From NCBI RefSeq assembly GCF_044704955.1, contig NC_091994.1:27714001-27778000 (forward strand): a stretch of DNA of 64,000 nt. Direction: 5' to 3'. The position numbers and the translations under genes were made by a program. The notes beneath the pieces were generated by a model that was given only the letters and a program-made list of their open reading frames with translations, did not search any database and was not told the DNA's origin. The stretch is from Pristiophorus japonicus (taxonomy: Eukaryota). Shown here in pieces: positions 29,851 to 56,681 of the stretch (the first letter of the stretch is position 1; each line of letters begins with the position of its first letter).

Positions 29851-30364
29851 TGGGCAAATGTTATAGCTCTAACCCTGGGGGCCCGAACGAACAAGAGAAT
29901 AACCATTCAAAGCGGCCCCTCGGTAGTGCTGTTTTTCCAGCCTTAGCAGCCATAGCTGAAACTCAGCAGGAGTTTATAATCTCAGTCAGATCCGCAGTAT
30001 CAGAATGAATGCTGTAAAGTGAGTGACTTTGGCGGGCAAATATATTTTCTTTTTTTCGATTTTCGCTATTTCAGGGAGGAAAGTCTCAAATTAAATATAA
30101 CATTTTTTAAAAATACGAGGTTTGAAACACATTTAAACCTGTTTTTGAAATATTCCATAATTACGACTGGAATTGAGATGGGATTGTTGATTGCAATCAG
30201 TTTAGGAATTTTTTTTAGGCAGAGGGCTGTTTGCATACGCAATACTTTACCAGAAACAGTGCTGGAAGTAGAGACACCACAATAGTTTTTGAAAAGGAAA
30301 TCGATAAATATTTGAAAGGACACAAATAAAATATATGGGGAGAAGATAGACGAATGGGACTAAG

Positions 30365-31906
30365 TGCAGAGCTCTTTGTGGCAGATTTTAGGGAGCTAAG
30401 AAATAGATTAAAAAGCAGAACCTCAAAGGTAATAATCTCAGTGCCACGAGCTAGTGAGTATAGAAATAGGAGGACAGAGCAGAACAGCTGCAGAGATGTT
30501 GTTGGTGGGAGGGCTTTGGATTCCTGGGACATTGGGACTAGTTCTGGAGGAAGTGGGACTTGTACAGGTCGGACAGGTTGCACCTCAACAGAGCCAGGAC
30601 CAATATCCTCACTGGGGGTTTGCTGGTGCTGTTAGGTGCTGTTAAACTAATTTGGCAGGGGGATGGGCATCAGGATGTATTATTAGATGGGAAAAACAAA
30701 GTGCACAAAGGATTGGGAGAGAGAGATAGCACTGGAATAAGAAATAGTAAAATATTAGATGGGATCAGACTAACGGAATACAAGAAGGGTGTATTCTAAG
30801 ATGGGTTTACAGTGCATGTGTGTAAACATACAAAATATGGTAAATAAGGTTGCTGATGTGATAACGGAGTACCTGGCTCAAAAAAGGGCAGGATTGGGTA
30901 TTAAATGTTCCTGCATATAAGGTGTTCAGGAAAGATAGGGAATAAAGACAGGAGTTGGGGTGGCAGTATTGGTTAAGGAGAATGTTAGTGCTGGCGAGAG
31001 AGGATGTCCTGGAGGCGTCAAGAACAGAATCTATATGGTTAGAATTAAGAAATAATTGCCATTACACTACTAGATGTATCCTATAGGCCACCAACTAGTG
31101 GAAAGGATATAGAGGAGACAATTTTCAGTGAAATTGCAGAGAGGTGCAAGAACTATAGATATTGGGGAACTTCAACTATCCTAATATAGACTGGGATAGT
31201 AATTGTGTAAAGGGCATAGAGGGGGAAGAATTTCTGAAGTGTGTTCAGGTGAACTATCTTGATCAGTGCGTTTCCAGCCCAACGAGGAAGGAGGCATTGT
31301 TGGATCTGATTCTGGGGCATGATGTAGGGCAAGTGTCAGTAGGAGAATATTTAGGGAACTAAATATCATACGGTTTAGATTAGCTATGGAAAAGGACAGA
31401 GGACAATCTAGTGTAAAAATGCTTAATTGGAGGAAGGACAATTTCAGTGGGTTGAGAACAGATCTGGCCCCGGTAAATTGAAATCCAAGATTGGCAGGCA
31501 AAACTGTAATCAAACAATGGGCTACCTTTAACGAGGGGATGGTTGGAGAACAGTTGAGGTACATTCCCACGTGGGGGAAAGGTAGGTCAACCAAAGTCAG
31601 AGCTTCCTGGATGATGAAAGAGAGGCGAGAGTAAGGTGAAGCAGAAAAAGAGTGGGTATGACAGATGTCAGGTTGAGAATAAAGTGAGAATCAGGCTGAA
31701 TATAGCAAGTTCAGAGTGAAAAAGAAAATAAGAGGGGCAAAGAGAGAGTATGAGAATAGATTGGCAGCGAACATAAAAAGGAATTCAATTCTATTGGCAT
31801 ATAAATAGTAAAGCGAGGTAGGACTGATTACGAACCAAAAAGGAGACCTACGCATGGAGGCAGAGGGCATGGCTGAGGTACTAAATGAGTACTTTGCATC
31901 TGTCTT
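30365..31906 (+). mobile_element. CR1 LINE, 5' part (ORF1 remnant and APE endonuclease), split by the ERV
   Basis: DRLHLNRARTNIL (ORF1 esterase-like), GNFNYPNIDW...PTRKEALLDLIL (APE); ...YFASV continues as FTKEE at 40520. Confidence 0.88.
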
Positions 31907-32443
31907 TGTTAATTCGGATTCTTTTTCCCTCAATCTGTTTCAGCGAATACACTGACACACGAACACCAAAGCAGCTTATAACAAAGCAGTCTTTATTAAT
32001 TGTTTCACCGGCCGGGACTTATCAGAACAAAGGAACGCTCTCCCTCAGAGTGCGCCCACTTCCCTCGGACAAGCCCTGTTACAATGTAGGAGCGCAACAG
32101 TTATACACTTTCAGTACGTAATACAATTGAGGGACATTCAGTTCACCCTATCCTTTGTGATCCCACCTTCCTTTTGTCCACTCATGAGTCGATACCTGGC
32201 CTTCCTTGCCCAATTAGGTACGGGCAAGTGGTTATAGCAACTGTTTTGCACAAAGAACTTTCTCACCCATTGCCTGTAAATGTTACAATTTTACTGGCGT
32301 GACTAGTAACTAAGACCTTGAGCAAGTCTGTTATTTGTGCTGATGTTGTAACATTTGCAGTCTGACATTCTTTTAGTTATCCTTCCATGATTCCTTTGTT
32401 CACTTCACTGTCTCTATTGCTTATACATTTTCACACATTCTCA
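31907..32443 (-). repeat. ERV 3' LTR
   Basis: Direct repeat of 39983-40519 (about 13 differences by hand count); preceded on minus by polypurine tract aaatgggggaa; AATAAA on minus near 31992. Confidence 0.95.
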
Positions 32444-32479
32444 TTCCCCCCATTTATCATTCCATGATAACCCTGGTGA

Positions 32480-33845
32480 CTATTCCAGGAGTATCGCATT
32501 CATCCGTTCGCACTCTCTTTCCTGATCCTCCTTGTCGAGTAGGTCTTTAGTTTGCTGGATCATAACTCGGGAGCCCATGGCCACAAGAGGGTTTGCTAAC
32601 CTTGCCATCATGACTTTACAACAAAGGTTAAAGCAACCAATAAGCAACAGGTAATTATTACTACGATGAGAATAATTGCTCCATGCATTAGATACGATCC
32701 CCAGGATCCACCTAACAGCCAATCAAACCAGCCTACTCCTCCTGTAGGGGTGGATAACTTCTTTACCTCCCTTCTTATGTGATCAGCGAGATTGGTTATG
32801 TTTTCTGAATTATCGGGGATGTAAGTGCAACATTCAGATCCTATCAGGGCACATGTTCCGCCTTTCTCAGCTAACAGATAATTGAGGGCCATTCGGTTTT
32901 GTAATGCCACGGTCCGTATTGCTATCATTTCGGCCGTGATGCCCTCCAGAGCTTCAGCAGTATAGTTAGCTATCTGTTCCAATACCCTTTTTAGGTTCTG
33001 TACTTCATCCATGGTGCGTCCTATCCCGAATGGGAACATCATGACCCCAAAGAACCTTTTGGCGGGGGTGAGGGCTCGCCTGTGTCGGCTGGAGGCATGT
33101 GCTTCCGCCAGGGTACGTGTTTGCTGCACAAATGGAACCACATATCCCAAATAGCAGGACCCTGTCCATCGCCTAGGTAACCAGGGGTATGCCCTATGCC
33201 CACACACAAAATACATGCCGTTATACGCTGCCTTTTTATATATTGTGTTGGGGTTCCAAGACTGGGCCCACAGACCTCCACCTGTTTTATTCGGAAGGTG
33301 AGAGAAGATAGTGACTCGTGCACCTGTTGTGATGTTGAGGTTTAGTGGGCAATCGCTGTACCCTATGATATGTCCCTTTCTGCTGGTGTCATTTCGGGTT
33401 AAACATATGGTCCCGCTTGGCCTCCCGATCCCCGAGGTATTGGTCAGGACCAAGAATGGGGGTTCCTTTTTATGGTCATAGGGCGGTTGGTACCATCCCT
33501 GGAACGTTTGACTAATGGGGTAGCCAGCACTCTCCCACTCGGTGACGTCCCCGTGGTTGTCCACGCGGTAACGGTATGATGCTCCTCCTGCCCTCCGTGA
33601 TCCCTCTCTTGACCCGCCTTTCATACAGTCTCAGTTAGGGTCAGTGCAACGGGGCGCAAAGGAATTCCCCCTTTGGAACGTATAGGCATATGTGAGCACA
33701 CCCAGCAACTAGAAAAGTTCCCATTTCGCGCATAAACATAAGACATATATAGAAACGTGTTTACACGGAGTTCCTTTCGTTGTCTTGCCCCCTGTATGTT
33801 ATAAGCCGCCAACGCCATTATACTAAAAAGAATCCACAACCCCAT
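32480..33845 (-). pseudogene. env: Retroviral env (gamma-type), two frameshifts
   Basis: Signal peptide MGLWILFSIMALAA, CWVC (CXXC), furin site RHRR, fusion peptide, ISD LQNRMALNYLLAEKGGTC, CX6CC (CALIGSECC), TM helix; frame breaks near 33622 and 32640; splice acceptor ...atgttacAG near 34012. Confidence 0.92.
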
Positions 33846-34034
33846 AGCTATGGGTTAAGTGGATATCATCCAACGTCCTCTGGGCCCGTCAGGTTCCAAG
33901 AGTCCCAAGGACCCGGTTTGTCCAACGGGGAATTGGAGGTACACAACCTTCAGCAGCTCGTCTTTGCTTGCCCGAATGTTCAACTTATTCAGCTATGGGA
34001 TAGAGGAAGTCTGTAACATAAATATAGAGGATAG

Positions 34035-35156
34035 TTAAGGAGTGATAAGCTTGCAATGATGCAGGTGAACCCAGGCACTTCTCCCTTCAACCTTAGCTGC
34101 AGTGGGGGTAGTGAGTAACACCTGAAAAGGCTCCTCCCATCGTGGCTCTAATCCTTTTCGAATTCATTTCTTAATCAGGACATACTTCCCTGGTGCCACG
34201 AGGGACAATTCGGGCGAAACTGGGAGGTCGAGGTGAGCATCTCGAACTTGGTTGTGGGCTATTCGCAGAGCCTGAGTCAGGGAAAGAACATAGGTGGTCA
34301 TTTCCTCAGTCATGTGGTGGAACTGGACAGTGGAGGGGACATTCTGATTCCATGGGGTCCTAAGGGGCCTACCATAAATGACCTCCGCGGGGGTCAGTCT
34401 AGCCTTGCCGGTGGGAGTAGTTCAGATCTGGAATAGGGCTATGGGAAGGAGTTTGAGCCAATTGAGTCCAGTTGATGCTACCAGTTTTGCAAGCTTGGTT
34501 TTAAGAGTTTGATTAGCACGTTCAACTAATCCCGCAGCTTGGGGTCGGTAGGCACAATGCAGCTGCTGGTTAATGTTCATCTGGGAACAGAATTTTTTGT
34601 TAACTTGGCCAATAAAGTGAGGGCCATTATCGGAACTCAGTCGAGCTGGGATACCATATCTAGGAACAATTTCCCTCATTAACACCTTAACAACAGTTTG
34701 AGCCTTATTGTCCAGGGTAGGGTAAGCTTCGATCCATTTGCTAAACACATATTTGTAACACTGAACTCTTTGCAACTCAATGTCGTCCAACTGCAAGGTC
34801 TCAAAGGGACCTTCTGGTAGAGGCGTCTTACCCCAATCACAGGGGACTCCCTTCCCTGGATTATGCTGCTGGCAAACAAGGCAGCGACTACTGATGTTCT
34901 GGGCCAGCGCCTGGAGTCTAGGGTGCCACCAAGTGGCCAAAAGCTTGTCACTTGTTGTCCTTGCTCCACAATAAGTAGCAAAGTGCATACATTCAATAAC
35001 CCATAGGGCCAACTCTTCAGACATGCAAGTCTGTTCCGCGGGAGTGGTCCAGAGTTTAGAGACATTGTCATAAGTACATCCATAATCTTTCCACAACAGT
35101 TTATCTTTTTCAGGAGCGTCCTCCTGTGCTTTAATTACATCTTGGATGGTTGGCAT
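34035..35156 (-). pseudogene. pol: Retroviral pol, integrase domain only
   Basis: Zn-finger remnant HFATY...CLVC, catalytic core LQLD / SSDNG / GLVERAN, C-terminal [14 protein letters not shown]...WVHLHHCK; small deletion and frameshifts. Confidence 0.92.
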
Positions 35157-36110
35157 TGGTTTTTCCCGAGGCTAACTTATCTTTTGCAAAGTTTTAGTCT
35201 GACTCATCTTTAATCCATGCATGTCGAGGTCACTCCGTGAAATCGGAGGTCAGGGTTAGGTTGGGTTTCTGGATTCCCCACCGTGGATGCATTGGCTCTT
35301 TTGCCACAGGTGATGGTGCTATGGCTGTGCACTGTATTATCTGTCTCTGTCTGGTCCCGTTTTTAAAAAATCTCTTTCAGCTTATTTATCTTAGCCTTTT
35401 AACTCTTGAGTTTGTTTTGTTTGAGTATCTATTTCTTTATTGTATCAGGCAAGTATTATTACATAAGCTAGTTCTATTTTATTCTGACTATCCCACCATT
35501 TCCTTTATCTGTCAGGTGAGTCTTTATTCTATTAAGAAATCCAAATTAATAATGTTCAGTATAAAACGGCTGTCACTGGAAAGGGTAAACTCCTTTACAG
35601 GTTTGTAAGAAGAGCTGATGTCATTGCGTGACTTCACGTAATCATCTGAAAAAAAAGTCTTTGTGCCTTCAAAACTTGCTTAGAAATTAGGAATCCGTTA
35701 AACAGCAGAAATCATTAGTAAAGCCGTCATAATAAAAGTCTTCTCATCAGGAAAGGCAGCATTTTAGATTAAACTCCAAAATTTTTTTTTTAACTTCTAA
35801 TTCAAGTACTTGCCAAATAATTTTTTTTTAAAAAATTGATTTAAAACGAGACCACACATTTTTAATAGCTATTTGTTTACTGAAATTAAATTTCGTCATC
35901 AGCCTCGGTCAATGCAAAGCCAACCATTTGACTACGTAGTCTATCAATACCTTTCTCATTGTTTGCCTTCTCCTTAGAACAGTGGCTCCTGGTGAAAGAT
36001 TAGGTAATGAGTCTGTAACATTGCCTCAAAGCTCATATTGTGACAATAACATTGAAATGTGACTTGCAACATGTGTGAGAAAAGGGTTTCAAACTGAGAT
36101 AAGGGCTACC

Positions 36111-36321
36111 TGTAATATATTTGCTTCATGGGTTCTTTGCTTAAGAATTCATAGCAGCACATTGCTATTAAGAACGAGTTGGTTTATTAGCAAAAGGTTT
36201 AATACTACACATTACCAGTTCATCCACTAGGCTCACAACCACCTGCCTCATCGTGGATCCCCCGAACCCAACTGGCTGGGGTTTTATTGAGTCTTGTGAA
36301 TATCACGTGACTGGCTAAGCC
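36111..36321. mobile_element. Possible truncated LTR of a different LTR element inside the ERV
   Basis: Begins tgtaat; minus-strand AATAAA motifs; composition differs from the flanking ERV; truncated by CR1. Confidence 0.35.
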
Positions 36322-37994
36322 TCTCAACAAGATTGTTAATTCGTCCTTTATCATTACACATCACCCAGTCTAGGATGGCCAGCCATCTAGTTGGTTCCTC
36401 GACATATTGGTCTAGAAAACCATCCCTAATACACTCCAGGAAATCCTCCTCCACCGCATTGCTACCAGTTTGGTTAGCCCGATCAATATGTAGATTAAAG
36501 TAGCCCATGATAACTGCTGTACCTTTATTGCATACATCCCTAATTTCTTGTTAGAAACAAGCCTGAAGGCTCTGAGTCTCAATGCGAGGAGCATTCATAA
36601 TAAGGGGGACGAATTAACTGCGCAGATAGCTGTTAACGAATATGATGTAATTGGGATTACGGAGACATGGCTCCAGGGTAACCAAGGCTGGGAATTCAAC
36701 ATCCAGGGGGATTCAATATTCAGGAAGGATAGACAGGAAGGAAGAGGAGGTGGGGTAGTGTTACTGGTTAAAGAGGATGTTAATGCAATAGTAAGGAAGG
36801 ACATTAGCTTGGATGATGCGGAATCTATATGGGTAGAGCTGCGAAACACCAAAGGGCAGAAAACGTTATTGGGGGTAATGTATTGAGGTGGATAGAGAAC
36901 TGGTTGGCAGACAGGATGCAAAGAGTGGGAATAAACCAGTCCTTTTCAGAATGGCAGGCAGTGACTAGTGGGGTACTGCAAGGTTCAGTGCTGGGACCCC
37001 AGCTATTTAAAATATACATTAATGATTTAGACGAAAGAATTGAATGTAATATCTCCAAGATTGCAGATGACACTAAGCTGGGTGGCTATGTGAGCTGTGA
37101 GGGGGATGCTAAGAGGCTGCAGGGTGACTTGGATAGATTAGGTGGATGAGAAACTGCAGATGCAGTATAATGTGGATAAATGTGACGTTATCCACTTTGG
37201 TGGCAAAAACAGGAAGACAGATTATTATCTGAATGGTGACAAATTAGTAAAAGGGGAGGTGCAACGAGACCTGGGTGTCATGGTACTATATCAGTCACTG
37301 AAGGTGGGCATGCAGGTACAGCAGGCAGTAAAGAAAGCAAATGGCATGCTGGCTTTCATAGCGAGAGGATTTGAGTATAGGAGCAGGGAGGTCTTACTGC
37401 AGTTGTGCAGGGCCTTGGTGAGACCACACCTTGAGTATTGTGTGCAGTTTTGTTCTCCTAATCTGAGGAAGGACGTGCTTGCGATTGAGGGAGTGCAGCG
37501 AAAGTTCACCAGACTAATTCCCGGGATGGCAGGACTGACATATGAAGAAAGACTGGATCGACTAGGGTTATACTCACTGGAATTTAGAAGAATGAGAGGG
37601 GTGAGAGGGGATCTCATAGAAGCATATAAAATTATGACAGGACTGGAAAGGTAAGATGCAGGATAAATGTTCCCGATGTTGGGAAGTCCATTAACATGGA
37701 GTCATAGTCCAAGGCTAAGGGGTAAGCCATATAGGACCGAAATGAGGAGAAACTTTTTCGCCCAGGGAATTGTGAACCTGTGGAATTCTCTACCACAGAA
37801 AGTTGTTGAGTCCATTTCGTTGGATATATTCAAGAGGGAGTTAGATGTGGGTAAGGAGGTCAGGGGGTATGGAGAGAAGGCGGGAGTGAGGTACTGAAGT
37901 TGCATGATCAGCCATGATCATATTGAATGGTAGTGCAGGCTCGAAGGGCTGAATGGCCTGCTCCTGCAACTAGTTTCTATGTTTCTATGTTTCT
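36322..37994 (+). mobile_element. Rearranged CR1 LINE inserted in the ERV (inverted 5' piece plus internal deletion)
   Basis: 36322-36552 is APE C-part on minus; 36553-36882 is APE N-part on plus (NARSI, GITETWL), fused directly to RT (WIENWL, ADDTKL); tail ctatgtttctatgtttc. Confidence 0.9.
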
Positions 37995-39962
37995 CAGAGG
38001 TCCCAGTGGAACTCTTGGTACGTTTCTCTTGCGCGCACTCTTTTTTAAGACGTCTACGGGTTTAACATGTCCTCCTTCTGTCAATGAGAGTCCTAATTTA
38101 GTGGCGTTTTCCTGCCAACTTGACAGAAGTGATGCATCTTTTCAAACTGCAGTGGAACTTTCTCATAATTTCTTTTTCACGGCAAATATTTTTTCAATTA
38201 AGCCAATATCTTTTTCACGGCAAATATCAGCTAGTATTTAATAAGTTATGTCCTTTTCCATCTCAGAACACTTTTTTTTCCTTTCAGCACCTATTTAGTA
38301 CGTTACGTTTTTTTTTAAAGATCTCCTTTCTTCAAATTAGGTTTTGTATTTGTTTTCTTTCAAGGTTGCGTCTTTTTTTTCCGTCTTTTCCATAACTAGA
38401 GGGAAGTCTGGCATGTAGGCTGAGAGGGCTGCTTTTCGTTATCTCAATTGTTCCAGTTTCAAGGTCGTTACCATGTCTCTTAGAAACTGCTAAAGCTTGC
38501 TGTTTTTAACATTTTTCAAAAGTCCCTTTTACACCTTCGCAGATAGCTCGCCACTCGCCCAGGAGTTTGACCTGATCCCTGAAGGTATTTCTAGATTGTT
38601 TCCAAACCTTTTAGTTTTATATCTCCTATTTTCTTTTAGAGATCAGATTTAATATAATTTTTTTTTTAATCCACCTCAGTATTTTGCTGTGCCTTCTCTG
38701 AATATCTCAAAATCCCAATCCAAACTTTGTAATTTCAATCTTTATTTAAAACTTTTTTTTTAAAAGGCATTCTTTATCTCATTCCGAGACTAAATTTATG
38801 TCTTTCAATCCAATGTAATCAATCATTGCATGTTTTCTTTCGACAAGTAAGTGAGCGTGTCAAATAAATTCTTTTTTTTTAACCACCGGGACCATGTATT
38901 TTTTTATCTTTTACTCAACAAACCTATCCTTTGTGCATTTCCTAGCTCTGTAACTTATCATCCGAATATATCCACACCTGCGTTCCTAACTTAAAATGTA
39001 ATTCAATAAGGTTCACACTTTTAAACTTCCCACAAACAGGACAACACTACGAAGGGTTAAAAAAACTTTCACTCTGTTTGAAAAAGTGGGTGGAGCTAAA
39101 ACAAACCACAACTCCCCGGTTTCCCAAACAGGCTTTCATTCTGCAGTCAAAATCACACAAGCACTTCTCATTTAAAACAGACGTTCACAAAAGTCTCTCT
39201 TCTTTCCAATTAATTGTTTTGGCCGGCTCTATTTTTGGATCCATGATCTTTCAGGGAATTCGTAGTTTTATCTAAATTACCCATCCTCGCGTTGCCCCGC
39301 GGAGGATCAGGGTCCTAATTAGTCCCGATTGTCCCCGCGTTGCCCCGCGGTGGAATAAGTAATCTTATCCAGAGCCTAGGTGGACCAAGTGATATACAAG
39401 ATCGACGCCGTACCTGGAATAAGTACAATTTTAAATTTACACAGTCCCGCGTCGCCCCGCGGCTTAATTTTACGTAATTCCCTAACCTCCGCGTCATCGT
39501 GCGGTTCGCGTCGCCGCGCGATTGTCTATCCCTCCGCATCGCCGTGCGGTTTTCCTGTTCGCATCGCCGCGCGATAAGCCTTACTTAATTTGTTCTAGGT
39601 TCCAGATTTCCCTATCCTAAGCCTTACTTAATTTGTTCTAGGTTCCAGATTTCCCTATCCTTCCGCGTCGCGATTTAAATCCAATCAGTGCCTAGACGGG
39701 CCAAGTGATATACAAGGTCGACGTCACACCTGACTTGGACACTTATTTCCTAAGTTTAGACGGTATTCGCCAGATTGACCTGGATCTCGTTCAGACACTA
39801 CCTGAGAACCAGCGAGTGGCCAAACTTTCCTCAGACTTTTGGAACTGAAGGAAACTGAAGTGGTATTTTAAAGGGTACTCACTCCAGTGGCCACTTTCCT
39901 CCCGTCTCGTCCAAGGCTAGTCTGGCTCTTAATTCGCAAGTTTTCGGCAGTCGTCTGTTGAG

Positions 39963-39980
39963 ATCCCACTTCTGACACCA
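39963..39980 (-). promoter_or_regulatory. Primer binding site complementary to tRNA-Leu
   Basis: Minus strand TGGTGTCAGAAGTGGGAT, 2 nt after the 5' LTR, complementary to the 3' end of vertebrate tRNA-Leu(CAA). Confidence 0.9.
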
Positions 39981-39982
39981 AA

Positions 39983-40519
39983 TGTTAATACGGATTCTTT
40001 TTCCCTCAATCTGTTTCAGCGAATACACTGACACACGAACACCAAAGCAGCTTATAACAAAGCAGTCTTTATTAATTGTTTCACCGGCCGGGACTTATCA
40101 GAACAAAGGAACGCTCTCCCTCAGAGTGCGCCCACTTCACTCGGACAAGCCCCATTACAATGTAGGGGCGCAACGGTTATACACTTTCAGTACGTAATAC
40201 AATTGAGGGACATTCAGTTCACCCTATCCTTTGTGATCCCTCCTTCCTTTTGTCCACTCATGAGCCGATACCTGGCTTTCCTTGCCCAATTAGATACGGC
40301 CAAGTGGTTATAGCAACAGTTTTGCACAAAGAACTTTCTCACCCATTGCCTGTAAATGTTACAATTTTACTGGCGTGACTAGTAACTAAGACCTTGAGCA
40401 AGTCTGTTATTTGTGCTGATGTTGTAACATTTGCAGTCTGACATTCTTTTAGTTATCCTTCCGTGATTCCTTTGTTCACTTCACTGTCTCTATTGCTTAT
40501 ACATTTTCACACATTCTCA
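39983..40519 (-). repeat. ERV 5' LTR
   Basis: Direct repeat of 31907-32443, adjacent to the PBS. Confidence 0.95.
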
Positions 40520-42150
40520 TTTTCACCAAGGAAGAAGGTGCTGCCAAAGACATAGTGAAAGAGGAGGTAGTGGAGTTACTGGATGGGATAAAAATTGTTA
40601 GAGGAAAGGTACTAGGAAGGCTGGCTGCACTTAAAGTAGATAAGTCATGAGGACTAGATGGGATGCTGAACAAAGTTCAGGTGGAAATCGCGGAAGTACT
40701 GGCCCATAATCTTCCAATCCTCCTTAGATACAGGAATAGTGCCAGAGGACTGGAGAATTGCAAATGTTATACCCTTGTTCAAAAAAGCGTGTAAGGATAA
40801 ACCCAGGCCAGTTAATTTAACCTCAGTAGTGGTGAAGCTTTTAGACATGATAATCGGGGACAAAATTAATCGTCATTTGGACAAGTGTGGATTAATTAAG
40901 GAAAGCTAGCATGGATTTGTTAAAGGCAAATCGTGTTTAACTAACTTGATTGAGTTTTTTGATGTAATAGAGAGAGGCTTGACAAGGGCAATGCAGTGGA
41001 TATGGTGTACATGGATTTCCAAAAGGTGTTTGATAAAGTGCCACATAATAAGCTTGCCAGAAAAGTTGAAGCCCATAGAATAAAGGGGACAGTGGCAGCA
41101 TGGATACAAAATTGGCTAAGTGACAGGAAACTGAATGGTGATGAACGGTTGTTTTTTGTACTAGAGTGGTGTTCCCCAGGGGTCAGTACTGGGAGCACTG
41201 CTTTTCTTGATATATATTAATGACTTTGACGTGGGTGTACAGGGCACAATTTCAAAATGTTCAGATGACCCAAAATTTGGAAGTATAGTGAACATGAGGA
41301 GGATAGTGATAGACTTCAAGAAGACATAGGCAGGCTGGTGAAATGGGCAGACATGAGACAGATGAAATTTAATGCAGAAAAATGCAAAGTGATATATTTT
41401 GGTAGGAAGAACAAGAAGAGGTAATATAAACTGAAGGATAGAATTCTAAAGGGGGTGCATGAACAGATAGACCTGCGGGTATATGTGCACAAATCATTGA
41501 AAGTAGCAGGGTAGGTTGAGAAAGTGGTTAAAAAGCATAGAGGATATTGGGCTTCATAAATAGAGGCATAGAGTACAAAAACAAGGAAGTTAAGATGAAC
41601 CTGTATAAAGCACTGGTTTGTCCTCAGCTGGAGTATTGTGTCCAATTCTGGACACTGCACTATAGGAAGGATGTGAAGGCCTTAGAGAGGGTGTAGAAAA
41701 CTTAGGAGAATGGTTCCAGGGATGAGGAACTTCAGTTACGTGGATAGATTAGAGAAGGTGTGGTTGTTCTCCTTGGAGCAAAGGAGATTTGATAGAGGTG
41801 TTCAGTATCTTGATGGATCTAGATAGAGAGAAACTGTTCCCATTGGAGGAAGGGTCGAGAACCAGAGGACACAGATTTAAGCTGATTGGCAAAAGCACCA
41901 AAGGTGACATGAGGGAAAACTTTTATTACGCAGCGAGTGGTTAGGATTTGGAATGCACTACCTGAAAGGGTGGTGGAGGCAGGCTCATGGCTTTCAAAAG
42001 GGAATTGGATAAGTACCTGAAGGGGGAAAAAAACGCTTGGCTACTGGAAATGGATGGGGAGTAGGACTCGCTGAAGCGCTGTTGCAGAGAGCCGGCACGG
42101 GCTCGACAGGCTGAATGGCTTTCTGTGCTGCAACCATTCTATGATTCAGA
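40520..42150 (+). mobile_element. CR1 LINE, 3' part (continuation of 30365-31906)
   Basis: RT fragments YMDFQKVFDKVPH, ctggagtattgtgtccaattctgg; 3' end ttctatgattc. Confidence 0.9.
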
Positions 42151-42774
42151 AGACTGGAATAGGTGTCATGGGCCAAATGCCCTCCCATGCTGCACAATTC
42201 CATCATTTTATCTCAAATACCTGCTATGCCCTACAGCTGTAGCATTTCTTCTTTAAGATTATTGAGAAACTGGATCAGTGATGTAGGGAGACTGAGTGGC
42301 ACAGAGTAACTGGCTACTCTCATTTGGGATTGTGGTTTAAATTCATTCTCTACGCGCTGACTGTAAGGGTCCTATGTTAAATGAATCTTGGTTTAGTAGG
42401 GGTGCCCTTAAACTGGATTTAATTCAGTTATTTTTCTTTTTCTTTACCGTATTGTCAGGACAAATGGAGAGAACTTTGTGCTACAGTTAGCTGTACAACA
42501 TGTGACCTGGAATTAATTGATTCTGGCATCGGGTGCCTGAAATGAATAAGTATTCAGTTTCTCTGCATCAGCATTCCCTCTTTTGAATACAGTCGTAGCA
42601 AAGATTTCCTTTTACATGTTATGGTACCAGTACACCTCAGGAAGCAGAAACTAGTTGTAGCAGCAAGCGGCCTTTGTAATATAACTTTTAAATAAATATC
42701 TCTCTTAAATCCTGCAGTATTACTGAATGTTTAAGGAGTACATTTGTAAAGGCATTCTTCTTTGATGTTTTCAG

Positions 42775-43890
42775 ATGGTGATGGCACGTGGAGGTAGTAG
42801 GTGTAACTGTCGTACAAGGATCTGGTGTAAGCCGAGAAGCTCCGATTGGTGGGAACGTGTGGTTATGAAGGAATTTCAGCCAAATGATTGGCTGGAAAAT
42901 TTCAGAATGTCTAAGGGAACATTTTTCCACATCTGTAATAAGCTGAAGCCCATGGTTTCTCGCCGAAATACTCACCTTCGTCCCGCACTGCCCCTGGAAA
43001 AGAGAGTCGCAGTGGCATTTTGGCGTCTTGCTACCAATGTAGAATATAGAACTATTAGTCATTTGTTTGGGATAGGCCGATCAACTGTGTGTAAATGTGT
43101 AAGAGAAGTATGTTATGCCATTGTGTCTCTCTTAAAGCCTCTGTATCTTAGGATGCCTTCTAATCAAGAATTTGAAATTATGGCTCAGACATTGGGTAGA
43201 CGGTGGGATTTTCCCCAATGCGTTGGTGCTATTGATAGTTGCCATATACCCATCATTGCCCCTCCACAATATCACAAAGATTACTTAAATAAAAAGGGAT
43301 GGCATTCAGTTGTGTTACAAGGTGTAGTTGACGACACTGGGAATTTCTGGGATGTCTGTACTGGATTTTCTGGGAGTTCTCTTGATACAAAAATTCTGAG
43401 GAATTCTGATCTATGGCGAACGGCGACCGAAGGAAGGTTGTTCCCTGACTGCTCGAAAAACATTATGGGAACACCAGTGAAATGCCTACTGATAGGCAGC
43501 TGCTCTTATCCATTACAGGAATGGCTCCTGAAGCCATACTCAGAAACAGGAAGACTATCACAGCATCAGCTTGTGTTTAACTACAGATTAAGCCAAGCTC
43601 ACACTGTGATAGATGATGCATTTGGACGACTCAAAGCACGTTGGCAGTGTCTTCTCAAGAGGAATGACTGTAGCCTTGAACTGATTCCAACAATGATCAC
43701 TGCCTGTTGCATTCTTCACAATGTCTGTGAAAAACATAATGATGGTTTTAATAACGAATGGCTGAGTGTTCTTGGGCAGGAGGAATTTCCTCAGCCGAAC
43801 CAAATAGTGACAGATAGAAAGGTTGACAGTCAAGCTGAAGAAATTCGTCAGGTATTGTCTGCTTACTTTATGGGTCTGGAGGAAAGCTAG
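42775..43890 (+). CDS. Exon 2 of Harbinger transposase-derived (ALP1-like, DDE_Tnp_4 fold) gene; about 425 aa with exon 1
   Basis: Uninterrupted 371-codon ORF: RSSDWW, NFRMSKGTF, HTH LFGIGRSTV, GAIDSCHIPI, YLNKKGWHSVVLQGVVD, AFGRLKARW, ACCILHNVC; ttttcAG acceptor immediately upstream; no TIRs seen. Confidence 0.93.
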   Translation: MVMARGGSRCNCRTRIWCKPRSSDWWERVVMKEFQPNDWLENFRMSKGTFFHICNKLKPMVSRRNTHLRPALPLEKRVAVAFWRLATNVEYRTISHLFGIGRSTVCKCVREVCYAIVSLLKPLYLRMPSNQEFEIMAQTLGRRWDFPQCVGAIDSCHIPIIAPPQYHKDYLNKKGWHSVVLQGVVDDTGNFWDVCTGFSGSSLDTKILRNSDLWRTATEGRLFPDCSKNIMGTPVKCLLIGSCSYPLQEWLLKPYSETGRLSQHQLVFNYRLSQAHTVIDDAFGRLKARWQCLLKRNDCSLELIPTMITACCILHNVCEKHNDGFNNEWLSVLGQEEFPQPNQIVTDRKVDSQAEEIRQVLSAYFMGLEES

Positions 43891-44021
43891 ATGTTATCCT
43901 TTAAGTTTTAGGTTGTAATAGTAGCATTTATGGAAACTGTAAATAATGTATGATAATTTTTCAATATGGTTTTCATCACTATGACTAGGAATGCCTCGAT
44001 ATTGTATACTGATGCTATTTC

Positions 44022-44027
44022 AATAAA
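44022..44027 (+). terminator. Candidate polyadenylation signal of the Harbinger-derived gene
   Basis: AATAAA 132 nt after the stop codon, followed by U/GU-rich sequence. Confidence 0.55.
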
Positions 44028-44699
44028 ACACACATTGTCTCCTTTCTTATTGTGATAGTGGTAAAGCTTATTGCAATTGTTACTATACAAATGGCATCTT
44101 GCAATAATTCGGTTAAACTTGCAGCTGCTGAAAGCTGAATAGCAGCTGGCGATTCATGCTTAATGTTTTTTGTTTGTATTCTCTGTTTAAGCTAAATTTG
44201 ATTTAACAGCTGTTGCAGTTGATTAGATGCAGCAGTGATTATTGGAAAAGGCCTTTTATCCAGAAACTTAAAGATTAGAAAATCAAAAGACAACAATAAT
44301 GAATTCTGATGAGGATAAAATGGAAAATAAAAATAAAATGAAGAAACAGAAATGCATAAATAAACTACCAAAGAAAAACACACAAAGCATGGGTAAACTT
44401 AAAATGTTAGAATAAAAACTTTAAAAGCCACCATTAAAGACAAGTAGGGCAAAGAAAAACACACTAGAAAGGTAAGACAGCAAAAGTAGCCTAAAGGACC
44501 AATGGATGAAACAAAGTTGACAGGAAATAATTTATTGATTTGTTAAGGATAGAGGTGATTTCCAACTACAACTAGTGATGGAAGGTAAAATGCAAATTAA
44601 CTATGCTTGTATACTCATTTGAGATCCAACACCGAAGAAGTAAATAAAAACTTGATGTGAGACAGTTCAGAAGAGTAACAGATGTTTCTTTGTGGAATT

Positions 44700-47600: not shown

Positions 47601-47766
47601 AAAGAGTTGTAAATGCCTTAGAATGTGGTTGAACCCTCCCACACATATGATGGGTTGGTCCAACCCCCCCCCCCCCCCCAGTAAAACTACATGGATTGGG
47701 CCAATGGGCCCCGGAGGATTCTGGGTGATCAGTGTCATGTGGCTCCCAGAACGCGGCGGGAAGGAA

Positions 47767-48040
47767 ATGTTTAACGGGATGGCGGTTGAGTCGATCGGGA
47801 GGACGCTGGCGGACGTGTCGAAGCCGCTGAAGGAGCGTTTCCGGGCGCTGTTTACCCTCCGCAACCTGGGCGGCTCGGCCGCCATCGACTGGATCTCCAG
47901 AGCGTTTGACGACGAGTCGGCGCTGCTGAAGCACGAACTGGCTTACTGCCTGGGGCAGATGCAGGACGAGCGCGCCATTCCCGTGCTGACCCAGGTGCTG
48001 CAGGACCGCGGCCAGGAGCCCATGGTCCGGCATGAAGCAG
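47767..48040 (+). CDS. DOHH: DOHH (deoxyhypusine hydroxylase) coding exon 1
   Basis: [14 protein letters not shown]...[14 protein letters not shown]...[15 protein letters not shown]...EPMVRHEAG; HE motifs 1-2; CAG|GTGAGG donor; start chosen by alignment to the vertebrate DOHH N-terminus. Confidence 0.95.
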
Positions 48041-48149
48041 GTGAGGCGCCAGGGCCCTGACCCTGGCAACACCGCCAGGCGGCAAATCTGCTCTTTGAAA
48101 TAGCAATCAACCACATTATAGATGGGCCGTTTTGGGCTTCCTTCCAACT

Positions 48150-49303
48150 ACATTAAGAAAGCAAATGGCATGTTGGCCTTCATAACGAGGGGATTTGAGT
48201 ACAGGGCCTTGGTGAGGCCACACCTGGAGTATTGTGTACAATTTTGGTCTCCTAACTTGAGGAAGGACATTCTTGCTATTGAGGGAGTGCAGCGAAGGTT
48301 CACCAGACTGATTCCCGGGATGGTGGGACTGACATATCAAGAAAGACTGGATCAACTGGGCTTGTATTCACTGGAGTTCAGAAGAATGAGAGGGGATCTC
48401 ATAGAAATGTTTAAAATTCTGACGGGTTTAGACCGGTTAGATGCAGGAAGAATGTTCCCAATGTTGGGGAAGTCCAGAACCAGGGGTCAGTCTAAGGATA
48501 AGGGGTAAGCCATTTAGGACTGAGATGAGGAGAAACTTCTTCACCCAGAGAGTGGTGAACCTGTGGAATTCTCTACCACAGAAAGTTGTTGAGGTCAATT
48601 CACTAAATATATTCAAAAAGGAGTTGGATGTAGTCCTTATTACTAGGGGGATCAAGGGGTATGGCGAGAAAGCAGGAATAGGGTACTGAAGTTGCGTGTT
48701 CAGCCATGAACTCATTGAATGGCGGTGCAGGTTCGAAGGGCCGAATGGCCTACTCCTGCACCTATTTTCTATGTTTCTACATAACTATTGAAAATGAGGA
48801 AAAGGCGATTGGCATGTTGCAAGGGTCTGGAGTGCAGGGGCAAGGAAGTCTTACTTTCATTGCACAAGGCTTTGGTGAGACCACACCTGGGAGGTGATCT
48901 CATTGAAACATATAAGATTCTGAGGGAGATTGACTGGGTAGCTGCTGAGAGGCTGCTTTCCCTGCCTGGAGAGTCTAGAAGCAGGGAGCATGGTCTCAAG
49001 ATAAGGGGCTGGCCATTTAGAATCATTGAATCATAAAACATTATGACTGAGGCTGAGATGAAAAGGAATTTCTCAGAGTTGTGAATCTTTGGAATTCTCT
49101 ACCCCAAAGAGCTGTGGATGCTGAGTTGTTGAGTATATTCAAGACTGAGATCGATAGATTTTTGGGCACTAAGGGAATCAAGGGATATGGGGATAGGGCA
49201 GGAAAGTGGAGTTGAGGTCGAAGATCAGCCATGCTATTATTGAATAGCAGAGCAGATTCGAGGGGCCATATAGCCTATTCCTGCTCCTAATTCTTATGTT
49301 CTT
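48150..49303 (+). mobile_element. Two adjacent CR1 3' fragments in DOHH intron
   Basis: LVRPHLEYCVQFW, SLEFRRMRGDL; tails at about 48783 and 49303. Confidence 0.9.
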
Positions 49304-49949
49304 TAGAGGTCAAATTCTGTTTGATCGCTCCTGTGCAGTGCCTTGGGATGTTTTACTACATTAAAGGCACTAACTAAATGCAAGTTGTTCCTACATTACA
49401 ACAGTGAATATACTTGAAAAGTACTTCATTGGCTGTAAAGCACTTTGGGAATGGAATTGAAAGGTGCTATATAATCTTCTAGTGCGTGTAGTTACACTGT
49501 GTCTGGGGTTGACAGACCTGAGGTAGGGTGATTTTATTTCAGAATATATAAAGGGGTGGATCTGTTGTGAGCAAATATATGTTGTGACTCTGGTTCCTGT
49601 GCAACTATCTATCTATTCACCTGCGTCTGTATATGTACTGGTTACATTTTTAATGTTCAGAATCTCTTGGATTCTCAGTTACCATTAAAAATTCTGATTA
49701 AATGGACAATGTGGGGGACTTCATAGTTTACAACAGATAACATGAGAACTTCCCAAAGTGTTTTCCTGCCCACAAGGTACTTTTTAAAACATAGTCGCTG
49801 TTGTTGTAAAAAAGAAAGAAAGACTTGCATTTTATACAGCGCATGAAGCCGCATCAATTGCAAAATCTGGGCCAATGTGTTTGTTCAGATTGCTAAACAT
49901 ACAAATATATGAAAATGACAGACAAGTAAAGACGCATTAATCAATCTAG

Positions 49950-50680
49950 CCAGTCCCATATAATTGTAGTGCCTGGCGCATCACAATACAGACACTCCCC
50001 ATCTGCCTGGAGCCATGTAATATCCAGGGAGAGGTGAAAAAACAGATACAAACTCTGAGCCAATTCGGAAAAACGCCTGGAAAATTCCTTTGATCCCTTA
50101 AGGTGCGCAAAACTAGTCTAGGAGATCGCATAGACCCTAATCTATATCGGATACCTCCTGCTTGTCATTATTTTATAAACCTCAATCAAATTACCACAGT
50201 CTACACTTGTCTAAAGTATACAGACCCACCTCTTTGAGCCTATCTGGGAAACTAAGGTGTTTCAAACTGAGAATTAATCTTGTGGCCCCCCTCTGCACAT
50301 TTTTCAGAGTCTCAATATCCCCCACAATGTGAGGAGAACAAAACTGGACACACTATTCAAACTGAGACCTAACCAAGGTCTTGTACAAGGACAAAATGAT
50401 TTGCTTTATTTTATAGTGAACTTTCCAATGATTACACCCAAGAACAATTGTTGCTTCAGCTATAGCTTCACAGCATTGGTCACGAACCTTTAGGAAAACA
50501 TACACATCTATTTCTTTCACTATTTATTTGTTTTAATTCTGTTGCCTGTAGAGTGTAAATGTATTTGTTTTTTTATCTGTCCACGTGCATAACACTACTT
50601 TTCTAAGTTAACCAGCATTTGCCAAACATGGACCCATTTTTTTTAACACATCTAGATCTGCTTTCAATAGTTGAGCATCC
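49950..50680 (-). mobile_element. Decayed CR1-like fragment
   Basis: Minus strand reads LYKTLVRSQFE.CVQF-like motif. Confidence 0.6.
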
Positions 50681-50697
50681 TGTAAGTGTCAGCAGTA

Positions 50698-50830
50698 CCT
50701 CAGTGGGTAGCACACTCTCGTCTGAGTCAGAAGGTTGTGGGTTCAAACCCCATTCCAGAGACTTGGGCATATAATCTAGGTTGACATTCCAATGCAGTAC
50801 TGAGGGAATGCTGGGCTGTCAGAGGTGCCT
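50698..50830 (+). mobile_element. tRNA-derived SINE 5' fragment
   Basis: ctcagtgggtagc (A box), gggttcaaacccc (B box), cagtactgaggga; homologous to 54590-54720. Confidence 0.75.
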
Positions 50831-50998
50831 GATAACTGGTCTCCAAGCAGATTCAGATCTTTTGACTACAATTTTCTGCCTGTGGTCATTCAGCCTATTC
50901 ACTATCCACTGCAGCAGATAACCACTGAACATCCAAACTAATTTGTTTTTTCTGGGAACTATTTTCATTGAATTTTTTTTGTTATGCTGTTATTTCAG

Positions 50999-51075
50999 GT
51001 GAGGCATTGGGAGCTATCGGAAAACCAGAGGTCCTTGAAACATTGAGATATTACTCTCGTGATCCTGTGATAGAA
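50999..51075 (+). CDS. DOHH: DOHH coding exon 2
   Basis: (G)EALGAIGKPEVLETLRYYSRDPVIE; tatttcAG and GTAAGA; 77 nt. Confidence 0.96.
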
Positions 51076-51849
51076 GTAAGAATCTTTTACATCATATTAC
51101 AGAGGCCTGTTTTAATTTTCAACAGATCATGCATTGCCAGCATGCATTGCTTTAAAAAGAATGAACTTTAAAATGTACACTATAATTTTCTTGTAAAAAA
51201 AATAGTAAGTCACTGACAGCTTTTTAGTTTGCGTTATTCATGCCTTCAATTTCACTGAGTGGATGGTAGATTAGTTTGCTCTTAATGTAAAGTAAAACTA
51301 ATTAATTCTTCTGAAGCTAATAAAATCCAATAATGCCTCTTCTGTTTAGCTAGGTAGCAGTATAGTATATATTTAAATTGTTGTTTCCTCCCCCCCCCCC
51401 CCCCCCTCCCATGTGCAAATCATGGGCTTGGTCCCATTTATTACCACTCTCTGATGTGTGTAGATCAGAGTGACCAATCTTTCGAAGCTTAAAAGCTGGA
51501 AAAGAAACTTGTTTTTGGGAAAAAGCCACGAGAGTTTCAGCCCTTTTATGTTACAGCTTGGGAAGGTGACTTGGTTATTGGCTGGTTCAATTCATCCCCT
51601 AGCAAAGAAAGGGTACAGGAGATAAAGACCTGATTGCTATGAAATGGGTTTGGTGGTAGGAGTAGCTAATGGGTTTATGGATAGTTTGATGTAAAATGCC
51701 CTCTTGGTATATTATGTCCTCCCCTAGTATTGCAGCCAAGCCGCAGTTCTAGGTCATACATTTGTTGCAGAGTTTGGTGCTTTGTTGAGCCTCACAGCTT
51801 CAGAACTATTTTTTATAGAAAAGTAGTGCTGGAATAGTGATATTTATGT

Positions 51850-52760
51850 AACATAAGAACATAACAAATAGGAACAGGAATAGGCCATTCGGCCCCTTGA
51901 GCCTGCTCTGCCATTCAATATCATGGCTGATCTACCCGCAACTCCACTTTCCTGCACTATCCCCATATCCCTTGATTCCCTTAATATCCAAACATATATT
52001 GATCACGGTCTTGAATATACTCAACGACTGCGCCTCCACAGCCCTCTGGGGTAGAGATTTTTAAAGATTCGCCACCTTCTGAGTGAAGAAGTTTCTCCTC
52101 ATCTCATTCCTAAATGGCCGACCCCTTATTCTGAGACTGTGACCCCTGGTTCTAGATTCTAGCCAGAGGAAACATCCTTCCTGCATTGACCCTGTCAAGC
52201 CCTGTAAGAATTTTGTATGTTTCAATGAGATCACGTCTCATTCTTCTTAACTCTAGAGAATATAGGCCGAGTCTACTCAATCTCTCCTCATAGGACAATC
52301 CCCCATCTCAGGAATCTGTCTGGTGAACCTTTGTTGTACTCCCTCCATCGGCAAGTATATCCTTCCTTGGGTAAGGAGGCCAAAACTGTACACAATACTC
52401 CAGGTGTGGTTTCACCAGGGCCCTATATAATTGCAATAAGACATCTTTACTCTTGTACTCAAATCGTCTTGTAATACAGGCCAACACACAATTTGCTTTC
52501 TTAATTGCTTGCTGTACCTGCATGTTAACTTAGTGATTTGTGTACAAGAACATCCATTTCCCTCAACACCAACATTTTCCAATCTCTCTCCATTTGAAAA
52601 GTACTCTGCTTTTCTACTTTTTCTACCAAAGTGGATAACTTCATATTTTTCCACATTATATTCCATTTGCCATGTTCCTACCCATTCACTTAGCCTGTCT
52701 ATAATCCCCTTGAAGCCTCTTTGCATCTTCCTTACAACTTACATTCCCACCTCTCCTTTG
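51850..52760 (-). mobile_element. CR1 LINE fragment
   Basis: LYRALVKPHLEYCVQFW on minus; acataagaacata tail. Confidence 0.9.
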
Positions 52761-54275
52761 TCTTCTCTTCGCCCACCACACACTATTACCGTTGTTGAAC
52801 TTTCCTACCCAACGGGAACGATTTCACTTCTTAATGGGCTTCAAAAGTGTCATGCTGACCTGTTTGATCTGCCAGCAAGGACCTGATTTAACAGCTGTTG
52901 TCTTTTTGTTACTGGATCCCGATTGGGAGCTATTGATTCAAGTTTCTTACTGGTCAAGTTTACAGCAGTACACAATTGCGAAATGCATGTCCTGATCTGT
53001 GTTCAGTTGGATGATCTCAGCCAGGGCAACATGGAACACTGCCTCAGACTAAGGAGGAAAAATAAATTTAAGCCAGTGTTCCCACATCTGAATGCTATCC
53101 AGTGACCACAGTAAAGCACGAGATCTGAAACCACATTTTTGAATTGCTTGTGTTCAGTGCACATGTTTCAATTTCCAGAAGAATCTTCATGATGTATTTC
53201 AAATTCAGGTGCGTTTGCATCAGCTGGTCCAAATGAATGATGCAATTAGATCTCTAGAATTTGGGAAAGTTATCAGCTTTACACAGTCCTGCTTATTGAT
53301 CTATCTATAGCAATGGCAGAACGTTTCTCTAATAGTAATGTGGCTTTCTAAATAAAAGTTCCAATACAAGGTTTCAAGAATTTCTTTCACAGAGCAGTCA
53401 TCAGACACAGTAAGCAAAAGTACTGCTGGCTGAGGCTTGTGCTCAACATCACAAGACTTCACCAATGTAAGTTTTAAATACATAAGCAAGGAGGCAAAGA
53501 TACATTTATATGTCATTGGTTAGACTATAGTTGGATTATTGTGTCTGCTTTGGTTGACCCATTATAGAAGGGGTATTCGAGCCATGGAAAAGCTGCAATT
53601 TAGATTTACAAGGACAATATCTGTCACAGACTGACAGCACATCATTCTGATGAGAGTCTAGTAAAAAACAAAGCTTTTTAGTATGTTCACTAAACAGAGA
53701 AGGTTAGATCTAATAGCAGCTGTAGGGCAGTGTGCTCACAATTCAACTGCCGAGATCCCATATCTGCATCGACAGGTGATGTTTGAGTTGGGTCTTGTGG
53801 TGCTGCTGGAATCTGAATCTATAGCTATGGATATGAGTGAGTATGAGAGCAAAGCCCTGTTTGTACTCATGTTGGTGGGGGGGGGGGGGGAGAAAGTAGA
53901 AATGGAGAGAGAGAGAACACAACGTATTCTCAAGTTGCTGTTTGTCAACAAAAAGTTGGTGATTTTTATGTTGGGGGGGGAAAAAGTACAAAATTGTGGT
54001 CTTCATCTTGGCAAACGAAGACGACCCCTTTAGGGCTGTTTTACTACCATTACAGAAAGTATCAGCCCCAGCAGTAATATACCCAATAGATCAACAAGGT
54101 GCTGGCCGAATCCAATAACTTATGGCAGTTTATTTTGATGGAATATAAAAAAGAAAGTGAAGACCACTGTTTTAGGGAGACTGGATAGTTTGAATTTATT
54201 TTTGATATCTCACAATCTGATTAAGTGGCTTGCCTACATTTCTTTTAAATGGTTAATTTATATTGCACTTTTTAG

Positions 54276-54510
54276 GTTGCTGAAACTTGCCAGCTGGCAG
54301 TTAAACGAATTGAATGGCTTCAGAACAGCAAAGACCAGAGTGAAAGCCAATACTCTTCAATTGATCCTGCACCCCCAGCTCTGGAGAAGGATATTAAAAA
54401 GTTGAGGGAAACTCTCCTGGATGAATCCTTGCCCTTATTCGACAGATATAGAGCAATGTTTGCCCTGCGGAATATTGGCAGTAAAGAAGCAGTCCTGGCT
54501 TTAGGAGATG
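54276..54510 (+). CDS. DOHH: DOHH coding exon 3
   Basis: VAETCQLAVKRIEWL...YSSIDPAPP...LFDRYRAMFALRNIGSKEAVLALGD; tttttAG and GTACGT; 235 nt. Confidence 0.97.
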
Positions 54511-54589
54511 GTACGTATTATCAAGTTTGTTTGGTCATATCATATCATTAATTACAGTTAGAATTTAGGGCTAGTATATCAAAGTGACA

Positions 54590-55030
54590 TGGTGGATCAT
54601 TTTCTTGCCTCTAAATCAGAATGTTGTGGGTTCAAGCCTCACTTTAGAAACCTGAGCACATAATCTAGGCTGACGTTCCAGTGCAGTACTGTGGGAGGGC
54701 TGCGCTGCTGGCGGTACCGTCTTTCGAATGAGACGTTAAACTGAGGCCTTGTCTGGCTTCTCGAAGACATAAAACATCCCATGGCACTATTCAACAACAA
54801 AAAAGCTGGGGAGTCCTCCCAGTGTCCTGGCCAACATTTATCACTCGACCAACATCCCCAAAACAAATTATTGTCATTTATTTCACACTGTTATTTGAAC
54901 CTAGCTGTGCCCAGATTTGCTGCTATATTTCTGTACATTACAACAGTGACTACACTTCAAATGTATTTTATTGTCTGTGAAATGGTTTGGGATGTCCTGA
55001 GATTGTGAAAGGCGCTATGTAAATGCAATT
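54590..55030 (+). mobile_element. Near full-length DeuSINE (SacSINE1-like) SINE
   Basis: tRNA-like head (gggttcaagcc), central cgtctttcgaatgagacgttaaactgaggcc...atcccatggcacta Deu-like domain, L2-like tail aaggcgctatgtaaatgcaa. Confidence 0.75.
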
Positions 55031-56248: not shown

Positions 56249-56627
56249 TAGGTTGTACCTCTCCATTCCGGGACTCTGGTCCGGCATCATTCCCGGCGGG
56301 GGGGTCGCAACCCGCGCTGTGTCCTGGGGCTGGCTGCTCCTCGTCTCCCCGCTGCCTCCAGTGTTCCCTCCTTGGTCGGGTCAGCGCGGAGAGGGAATGA
56401 GGAGCGCGGCGGCTGACTGAGGTGCTGAAGCTGGGCCTGAGAAATGCTGCACAGTAGGCTTCTGCACAGCGCATGCACAGAACGCGGCCGGGTCGTTGTC
56501 AGCAGTACCCGGTAAGTGTAGGATACTGCTGACAACGCTTGGGTCGGCATGACCTCCCGTGGTCTGGAAAATTCTCTGGTCCGGCACTGGTCAGGTCCCA
56601 AGGGTGCGGACTGGAGAGGTACAACTG
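56249..56627. mobile_element. Small Tigger-like MITE in the last DOHH intron
   Basis: TIRs gttgtacctctcca / tggagaggtacaactg flanked by TA; GC-rich interior. Confidence 0.75.
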
Positions 56628-56681
56628 TAATTTGATTTGCGTTTGGATGGTGAACTGTAACTTGTGCATTTTCCCCTCCAG

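Follow-up and report, generated by a model that had tools for sequence, protein, structure and literature searches.

A domesticated Harbinger-derived gene beside DOHH and its probable role as a non-cutting adaptor in sharks

Introduction

The N-terminal end of a Harbinger transposase is bound by a Myb-like protein that imports it into the nucleus, as part of PMC9392472 describes, and portions of PMC7282668 place the contact with the nuclease at the Myb protein's C-terminal part in ALP, HDP, NAIF1 and Ping, the Ping nuclease's N-terminal half being enough for Myb binding. Sections of PMC4671723 report that one triad mutation sharply lowers Ping transposition, and that the triad of ALP1, D-G-A in Arabidopsis, is D-D-E in those land plants that are basal to angiosperms. 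A screen that started from human proteins gave HARBI1 as the sole transposase-derived Harbinger gene of vertebrates, against at least five derived from the Myb-like partner (part of PMC9392472), and no second vertebrate gene of transposase origin is named in the available portions of PMC9710019, PMC8616336, PMC9179366, PMC11893794 and PMC10027918.

We analysed a stretch of 64,000 nucleotides from Pristiophorus japonicus (the window; GCF_044704955.1, contig NC_091994.1, positions 27,714,001-27,778,000, forward strand) that contains a Harbinger-derived gene between a Fizzy/CDC20-type gene and DOHH. A screen from human proteins would miss this gene if, as is likely, mammals lack it. Database names of its orthologues are 'putative nuclease HARBI1' and 'ALP1-like', with a gar record Si:ch211-133l5.8; 'ALP1-like', as used by NCBI, points to no more than a similar domain. 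No description of a Harbinger gene linked to DOHH was found in the literature, most subscription papers, theses and supplements lying outside the scope of the search; by name, HARBI2 returned only unrelated entries, ch211-133l5 only another gene (.7), and DOHH with Harbinger none. A DOHH-linked domesticated Harbinger transposase is thus apparently undescribed. On balance we favour the reading that this is an old host gene of Harbinger origin whose shark form acts as a non-cutting adaptor with a Myb-like partner.

Results

Gene structure and genomic setting

The open reading frame at 42775-43890 is exon 2 of a two-exon gene of 425 aa in total, exon 1 (29604-29765) having been overlooked in the initial annotation; the best homologue, a Heterodontus protein of 425 aa (94% identity), is 54 residues longer than the exon-2 frame. 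The features of the locus are as follows.

29001-30000, no strand: CpG-island promoter, GC content 0.56-0.57 and CpG observed/expected 0.89-0.93, covering exon 1
29604-29765, plus strand: coding exon 1 of 54 aa, Arg-rich after a hydrophobic part, 89% identity with the Heterodontus N-terminus
29766-42774, plus strand: intron of 13.0 kb, GT..AG, containing LINE pieces as well as remnants of retroviral integrase and env (Pfam rve, TLV_coat)
42775-43890, plus strand: coding exon 2, 371 aa, HTH region and RNase H-like DDE_Tnp_4 domain
43891-44040, plus strand: 3' UTR, poly(A) signal near 44022, contig ends at 43996-44040 in 4/4 runs
47767-56992, plus strand: DOHH (deoxyhypusine hydroxylase), the downstream neighbour, four coding exons found by tblastn with coelacanth DOHH (75-80% identity)

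Exon 1 is closed by a phase-0 GT donor at 29766, and an acceptor AG lies directly before 42775. A contig from run X1 (record 1) splices 29640-29764 onto 42774-43996 at GT..AG ends, without the 13-kb intron; the contigs are RNA-like, the run type being a guess and no run being recorded as RNA. The exon-2 contig carries at least ~100 extra 5' letters, unbroken at the junction, in three of the four runs, and these were identified as exon 1 only in X1. The first poly(A)-type hexamer stands 132 bases downstream of the stop codon. Within the intron, the integrase and env remnants at 32608-35171 (minus strand) are antisense to the gene.

Upstream, a 4436-nt contig spans 29103-29686, with 3852 letters falling outside the stretch, before 29103, and at the point where it leaves the stretch (29103) there is a GT donor on the minus strand. 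CDC20/Fizzy-type WD40 exons, also on the minus strand, are located 10-24 kb ahead of the window. The CpG-island promoter is likely shared head-to-head with this minus-strand gene, which is putatively FZR1, in line with how FZR1 and DOHH are arranged in human. A first exon common to the Harbinger-derived gene and DOHH was rejected, reads at the DOHH acceptor having no loose 5' end. An acceptor-like AG at 47748-47749 precedes the first coding exon of DOHH, yet no upstream exon was recovered.

The gene is single-copy, the remaining 109 of 110 matches in the P. japonicus genome being just 25-31% identical. Marks of an active transposon were not seen at the locus: D-S-D replaces D-D-E, there is one copy, no Myb gene near the locus occurs among the scored Myb candidates, and the flanks at 26.0-29.6 kb and 43.9-47.5 kb share no inverted 13-mers. 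We regard it as almost certainly a domesticated host gene.

A second Harbinger sequence in the window, at ~18.1-19.2 kb, is a broken element in which LGDKGY and ERTIG are present alongside stops, as first described. It was rejected as the origin of the gene, to which it is 27-36% identical over short stretches only, and belongs to a different family. The dead element likely reaches past 19187 (~18059-22384) and includes, on the minus strand, a Myb-like gene that is broken; its ends may be marked by 13 bases that match in inverted orientation at 18059/22384.

Domain assignment and predicted fold

Both the Pfam alignment and the structure prediction proposed at the outset were run, and they show DDE_Tnp_4 membership and a preserved fold. 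Residues 153-316 of exon 2 match DDE_Tnp_4 at E 6e-30, with 104 bits against a curated cut-off of 24.8. The model of the window protein has a pLDDT of 89.7 and an RNase H-like DDE-transposase fold. Its best structural matches are modest, namely piggyBac (Z 9.3, rmsd 5.5, 238 aligned) and Tn5 (Z 8.6, rmsd 5.7, 251 aligned); solved structures searched by sequence gave 0 matches, Foldseek matched nothing at E 0.001, and an ESM Atlas match gave the family name alone. In a model of the full-length Heterodontus orthologue, exon 1 is predicted to be a single helix (residues 6-59) on a flexible linker.

Catalytic residues of the window protein

Three positions of the catalytic triad and one further motif residue were located, in exon-2 numbering.

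43234-43236, plus strand: first catalytic Asp, D154, kept in GAID
43384-43386, plus strand: Asp of SxHD, D204, kept; the His has become Leu
43498-43500, plus strand: second catalytic Asp replaced by Ser, S242, in LIGSCSY; the Ser is fixed in cartilaginous fishes
43612-43614, plus strand: catalytic Glu replaced by Asp, D280, in VIDDAFG; 27 D, 1 H (Heterodontus) and 1 E (skate-type) among 29

All three triad readings of the initial annotation hold: the GAID codon at 43234 is Asp154 in frame from 42775, the Asp of canonical LLGDxxY is Ser242 at 43498, and the Glu of VE/IE-x-AFG is Asp280 at 43612. The register was checked in the alignment, where these three columns are D-D-E in 29/29 outgroup transposases. 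Ser242 is not a chance substitution or a sequencing error, since the same Ser occurs in all 29 chondrichthyan sequences. The reported change of PGSxHD to SGSSLD (43369-43386) is partly right, with the His gone but the motif Asp, Asp204, retained. As for the motifs described as kept, YLNKKG at 43282 and CCILHN at 43705 are present, and the HTH_Tnp_4 match (residues 71-112) scores 24.2 bits, below the 27-bit cut-off. Sharks retain the carboxylates D154, D204 and D280, plus D281 in most, so that acidic residues that might compensate, as raised at the outset, are present (D204, D280, D281). We also observed that H157, N172, C311, H315, N316 and C318 (43243-43728) are near-invariant in orthologues and outgroup transposases regardless of the triad, and this set could possibly form a structural metal site.

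Orthologues, tree and synteny

Orthologues were matched in chimaera, sharks and rays, in coelacanth, in sturgeon, bowfin, gar and teleosts, in caecilians and salamanders, and in turtles, crocodilians and birds. When 46 rows picked by hand, HARBI1 not among them, were analysed with IQ-TREE, 27 rows formed one clade (support 100/100) whose inner order matches the jawed-vertebrate tree and in which teleosts have two copies, a and b; a wider FastTree agrees. Synteny was read indirectly, from database record data and not from aligned genomes, and places DOHH on the same contig as the orthologue in nine of ten comparable species.

Same contig as DOHH: Latimeria, Rhinatrema, Gavialis, Alligator, Crocodylus, Tympanuchus, Coturnix, Lathamus, Opisthocomus
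Exception: Caretta

Accessions of the orthologue and DOHH are at most 12 numbers apart in 6/9 species (e.g. XP_005999530/531, XP_019368820/821), and fused DDE+DOHH gene models exist in Tinamus and for the Labeo b copy. A database cluster, that of P0026, groups bird DOHH with the Harbinger-derived protein, probably via such fused models.

Neither the best 120 of 466 matches nor any of 94/94 matches to the turtle protein came from a mammal, frog or lungfish. Mammal and lungfish DOHH are present in the same database, and the searches were word-seeded; an orthologue is likely absent from mammals, frogs and lungfish. Squamate proteins are doubtful orthologues, with a long branch outside the clade and contigs other than that of DOHH in 2/2 species; the AU test did not reject their inclusion in the clade (p 0.068), and we count them as non-orthologous.

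Other Harbinger-derived proteins were observed around the clade. The lizard proteins P0344-P0347 have lost the triad wholly (G-G/S-G) and are conserved across Varanus, Euleptes and Podarcis, probably as a separate domestication. Hagfish P0085, P0181 and P0182 are Harbinger-derived, read D-G-E and are near-identical between Myxine and Eptatretus, which likely reflects another domestication. The teleost zgc:113227 group (P0101, P0102, P0103, P0106, P0114) keeps D-D-E in a well-supported clade near the Harbinger-derived gene, and may be a further host gene, not a mobile family.

Triad state across lineages

Triad states were counted in lineage groups assigned by hand from names and the FastTree, with isoforms and near-duplicates counted separately, short fragments and one eel sequence gapped at the second Asp excluded, and the shark cluster represented by 15 listed members out of 24.

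Cartilaginous fishes: D-S-D 27, D-S-H 1, D-S-E 1 (n = 29)
Coelacanth: D-D-E 2/2
Non-teleost ray-fins: D-D-E 7/7
Turtles and crocodilians: D-D-E 6/6
Birds: D-D-E 21/21
Caecilians: G-D-E 4/4
Salamanders: D-D-E 2/3
Teleost a copy: D-D-E in basal 1/3, otophysan/clupeoid 0/24, euteleost 0/54
Teleost b copy: D-D-E 7/9

The ancestral state is D-D-E, as the outgroup reads D-D-E in 29/29 sequences. The IQ-TREE clade requires four changes of triad state, and the residues lost differ, sharks having lost the second Asp and the Glu, caecilians the first Asp, and the teleost a copy the first Asp and usually more. The triad was broken independently at least four times. Loss of D-D-E is accordingly not general to the orthologues, the triad being retained in coelacanth, non-teleost ray-fins, turtles, crocodilians, birds and teleost b. 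Such retention had been named at the outset as refuting evidence, and it counts against the claim for the family but not for sharks.

The shark triad state predates the divergence of chimaeras and sharks. Identity between the window protein and that of chimaera is 87.5%, which exceeds the 78% between the coelacanth and gar proteins, with intact triads; cartilaginous fishes evolve slowly in general, which weakens the comparison. Chimaera-to-shark identity of ~87% with the Ser fixed in 29/29 nevertheless argues that selection continues without the triad. The initial claim that selection kept the fold and not the nuclease consequently stands for cartilaginous fishes, in which the triad is broken, the protein conserved and the fold kept, but not for the family, in which D-D-E is widespread. 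The shark protein is probably a pseudo-nuclease.

An unlikely alternative, though the one that fares best, is that the gene was domesticated as a working nuclease that still cuts or nicks in the D-D-E lineages, with sharks, caecilians and teleost a later becoming pseudo-enzymes, or sharks remaining weakly active through D154, D204 and D280. It draws on the intact triads of coelacanth (2/2), non-teleost ray-fins (7/7), turtles and crocodilians (6/6) and birds (21/21), on the 7/9 sequences of the fast-evolving teleost b copy that retain D-D-E, and on a teleost duplication that left one triad-keeping and one triad-losing copy. D-D-E is, however, retained no more often than background: it is invariant in 7/7 non-teleost bony-vertebrate representatives, and the core background invariance of 0.55 per column gives a 16% expectation of this, so that retention there is not significant, yet leans towards some use of the triad. 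The D-D-E-keeping lineages have also lost other outgroup motifs, including the SxHD His (in all; 29/29 in the outgroup), its Asp (in amniotes) and the AFG Gly, and the four separate losses imply that the host tolerates loss.

A bolder version, to which we give somewhat less credence, holds that jawed vertebrates have here a second old gene made from a Harbinger transposase, overlooked through mammalian loss. It would still work as a host nuclease in birds, crocodilians and turtles as well as in coelacanth and gar, and would have become a pseudo-enzyme on at least four occasions (in sharks, caecilians, a newt and one teleost duplicate). If true, it would provide a natural enzyme/pseudo-enzyme series, with zebrafish having both states together.

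A candidate Myb-like partner

The initial annotation had also suggested a Myb/SANT partner of NAIF1 or MSANTD type. Of these, the MSANTD1/2 (Myb_DNA-bind_4) type appears likely and the NAIF1 type is disfavoured, as all ten linked Myb genes are Myb_DNA-bind_4. These come from a set of 80 related loci in metagenomes, often short, of which ten had a Myb gene, always convergent and always matched by Myb_DNA-bind_4-type queries; five PF13873-type queries gave 0 matches in the same 80 loci.

The P. japonicus genome holds ~5-6 strong Myb_DNA-bind_4 matches above a weak background, none near the Harbinger-derived gene, and two of these candidates retain a C-terminal coiled-coil exon. A complex predicted for the full-length Heterodontus orthologue with one Myb coiled-coil exon (one of at least five candidates) scored 0.00 twice with alignments unused, which is uninformative either way.

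Several of the candidates resemble host genes. L007 (G000:C14:134480046-134480309) with L106:8758-9399 combines a Harbinger-type Myb_DNA-bind_4 exon and a coiled-coil exon; in lungfish, eel and milkfish, orthologues of this gene have an ACC-synthase-like (ACCS) enzyme as fusion partner, with a shorter model in Anolis, and it is possibly a domesticated Myb-enzyme fusion. L008, L009 (with L111:6361-6660) and L010 are three more strong Myb_DNA-bind_4 genes, resembling unnamed host genes, and at 4/10 loci it is L009 that the Myb gene of the related mobile element matches best.

These counts also bear on the proposal, improbable in our view and less credible than either nuclease reading, that the protein, as a dead transposase, acts as a restriction factor, titrating Myb-like proteins or the ends of active Harbinger elements and blocking their movement. 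Lost catalysis with a kept fold would suit a dominant-negative role, and no mammalian orthologue was among the matches listed, Harbinger elements being absent from mammals (part of PMC9392472). In this genome, however, mobile relatives are distant (25-31% identical at best) and only a handful of Myb_DNA-bind_4 matches are strong; slow, tree-like evolution and intact bird copies are unlike an arms race, and ALP1 does not bind the mobile-element Myb protein (part of PMC7282668). Finally, the reading that the frame is open by chance, in a pseudogene or a decayed copy of a transposon, has a negligible probability, for although genuine decayed Harbinger copies occur in the window and two mobile-type relatives likewise have two exons, of which the first is hydrophobic and Arg-rich, this reading is refuted by orthology and synteny, with intact jawed-vertebrate orthologues, and opposed by the CpG promoter, the spliced contigs and flanks free of inverted 13-mers.

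Discussion

The reading we prefer, a host gene whose shark form is a non-cutting adaptor, would begin with an ancestor domesticated with its triad intact. The selected function would be independent of catalysis, since different residues were broken in different lineages while the protein was retained. On the predicted structure, the exon-1 helix may serve as the docking site for a Myb-like partner, presumably a single-copy host protein of Myb_DNA-bind_4 (MSANTD1/2) type, which would carry the Harbinger-derived protein into the nucleus and onto DNA. By analogy with ALP1-ALP2 and HDP1-HDP2 in plants, the pair might then recruit or block a chromatin complex; a connection to PRC2 or chromatin, which had been proposed from the start, is suggested solely by likeness to plant ALP1.

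A second vertebrate gene derived from a Harbinger transposase would fill a gap and provide a candidate transposase partner for MSANTD1/2-type proteins. With the triad kept or broken by lineage, and one of each in teleosts, whether domesticated Harbinger nucleases need catalysis can be tested in zebrafish and chicken. The assignment also corrects the database labelling of orthologues as HARBI1 or ALP1.

Among described systems, the nearest relatives of the window gene are autonomous Harbinger transposons (zgc:113227-like and invertebrate; 43-53% identical), which share its fold, motifs and hydrophobic/basic N-terminal exon. They differ in keeping D-D-E and SxHD in 29/29 and in carrying a convergent Myb gene, whereas the window gene has a fixed position, is single-copy and is without a partner ORF or detectable ends. 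Insect DPLG/DPM show that PIF/Harbinger transposases are repeatedly domesticated as host genes (part of PMC9710019), but no Myb/MADF gene was found adjoining the window gene, so that its partner, if any, is unlinked. ALP1 is likewise a domesticated Harbinger nuclease whose triad some lineages keep and others have broken; the plant domestications (ALP1 with ALP2, and also HDP1-HDP2 and HHP1-SANT) are independent, and any contact of the window gene with PRC2, IDM1 or HDA6 would be hypothetical. HARBI1 resembles it in being single-copy, derived from a Harbinger transposase, dated to the jawed-vertebrate base and of the same Pfam domain. Human HARBI1, however, lies with ATG13, AMBRA1 and F2 at 11p11.2 (part of PMC12945570) and the window gene beside DOHH; mammals possess HARBI1 (part of PMC9392472), while no mammal is among the listed matches to the window gene; and the partner of HARBI1 is NAIF1, while mobile relatives of the window gene pair with Myb_DNA-bind_4-type proteins. 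The DOHH-linked gene is not HARBI1, from which its locus and the presence of HARBI1 in mammals set it apart.
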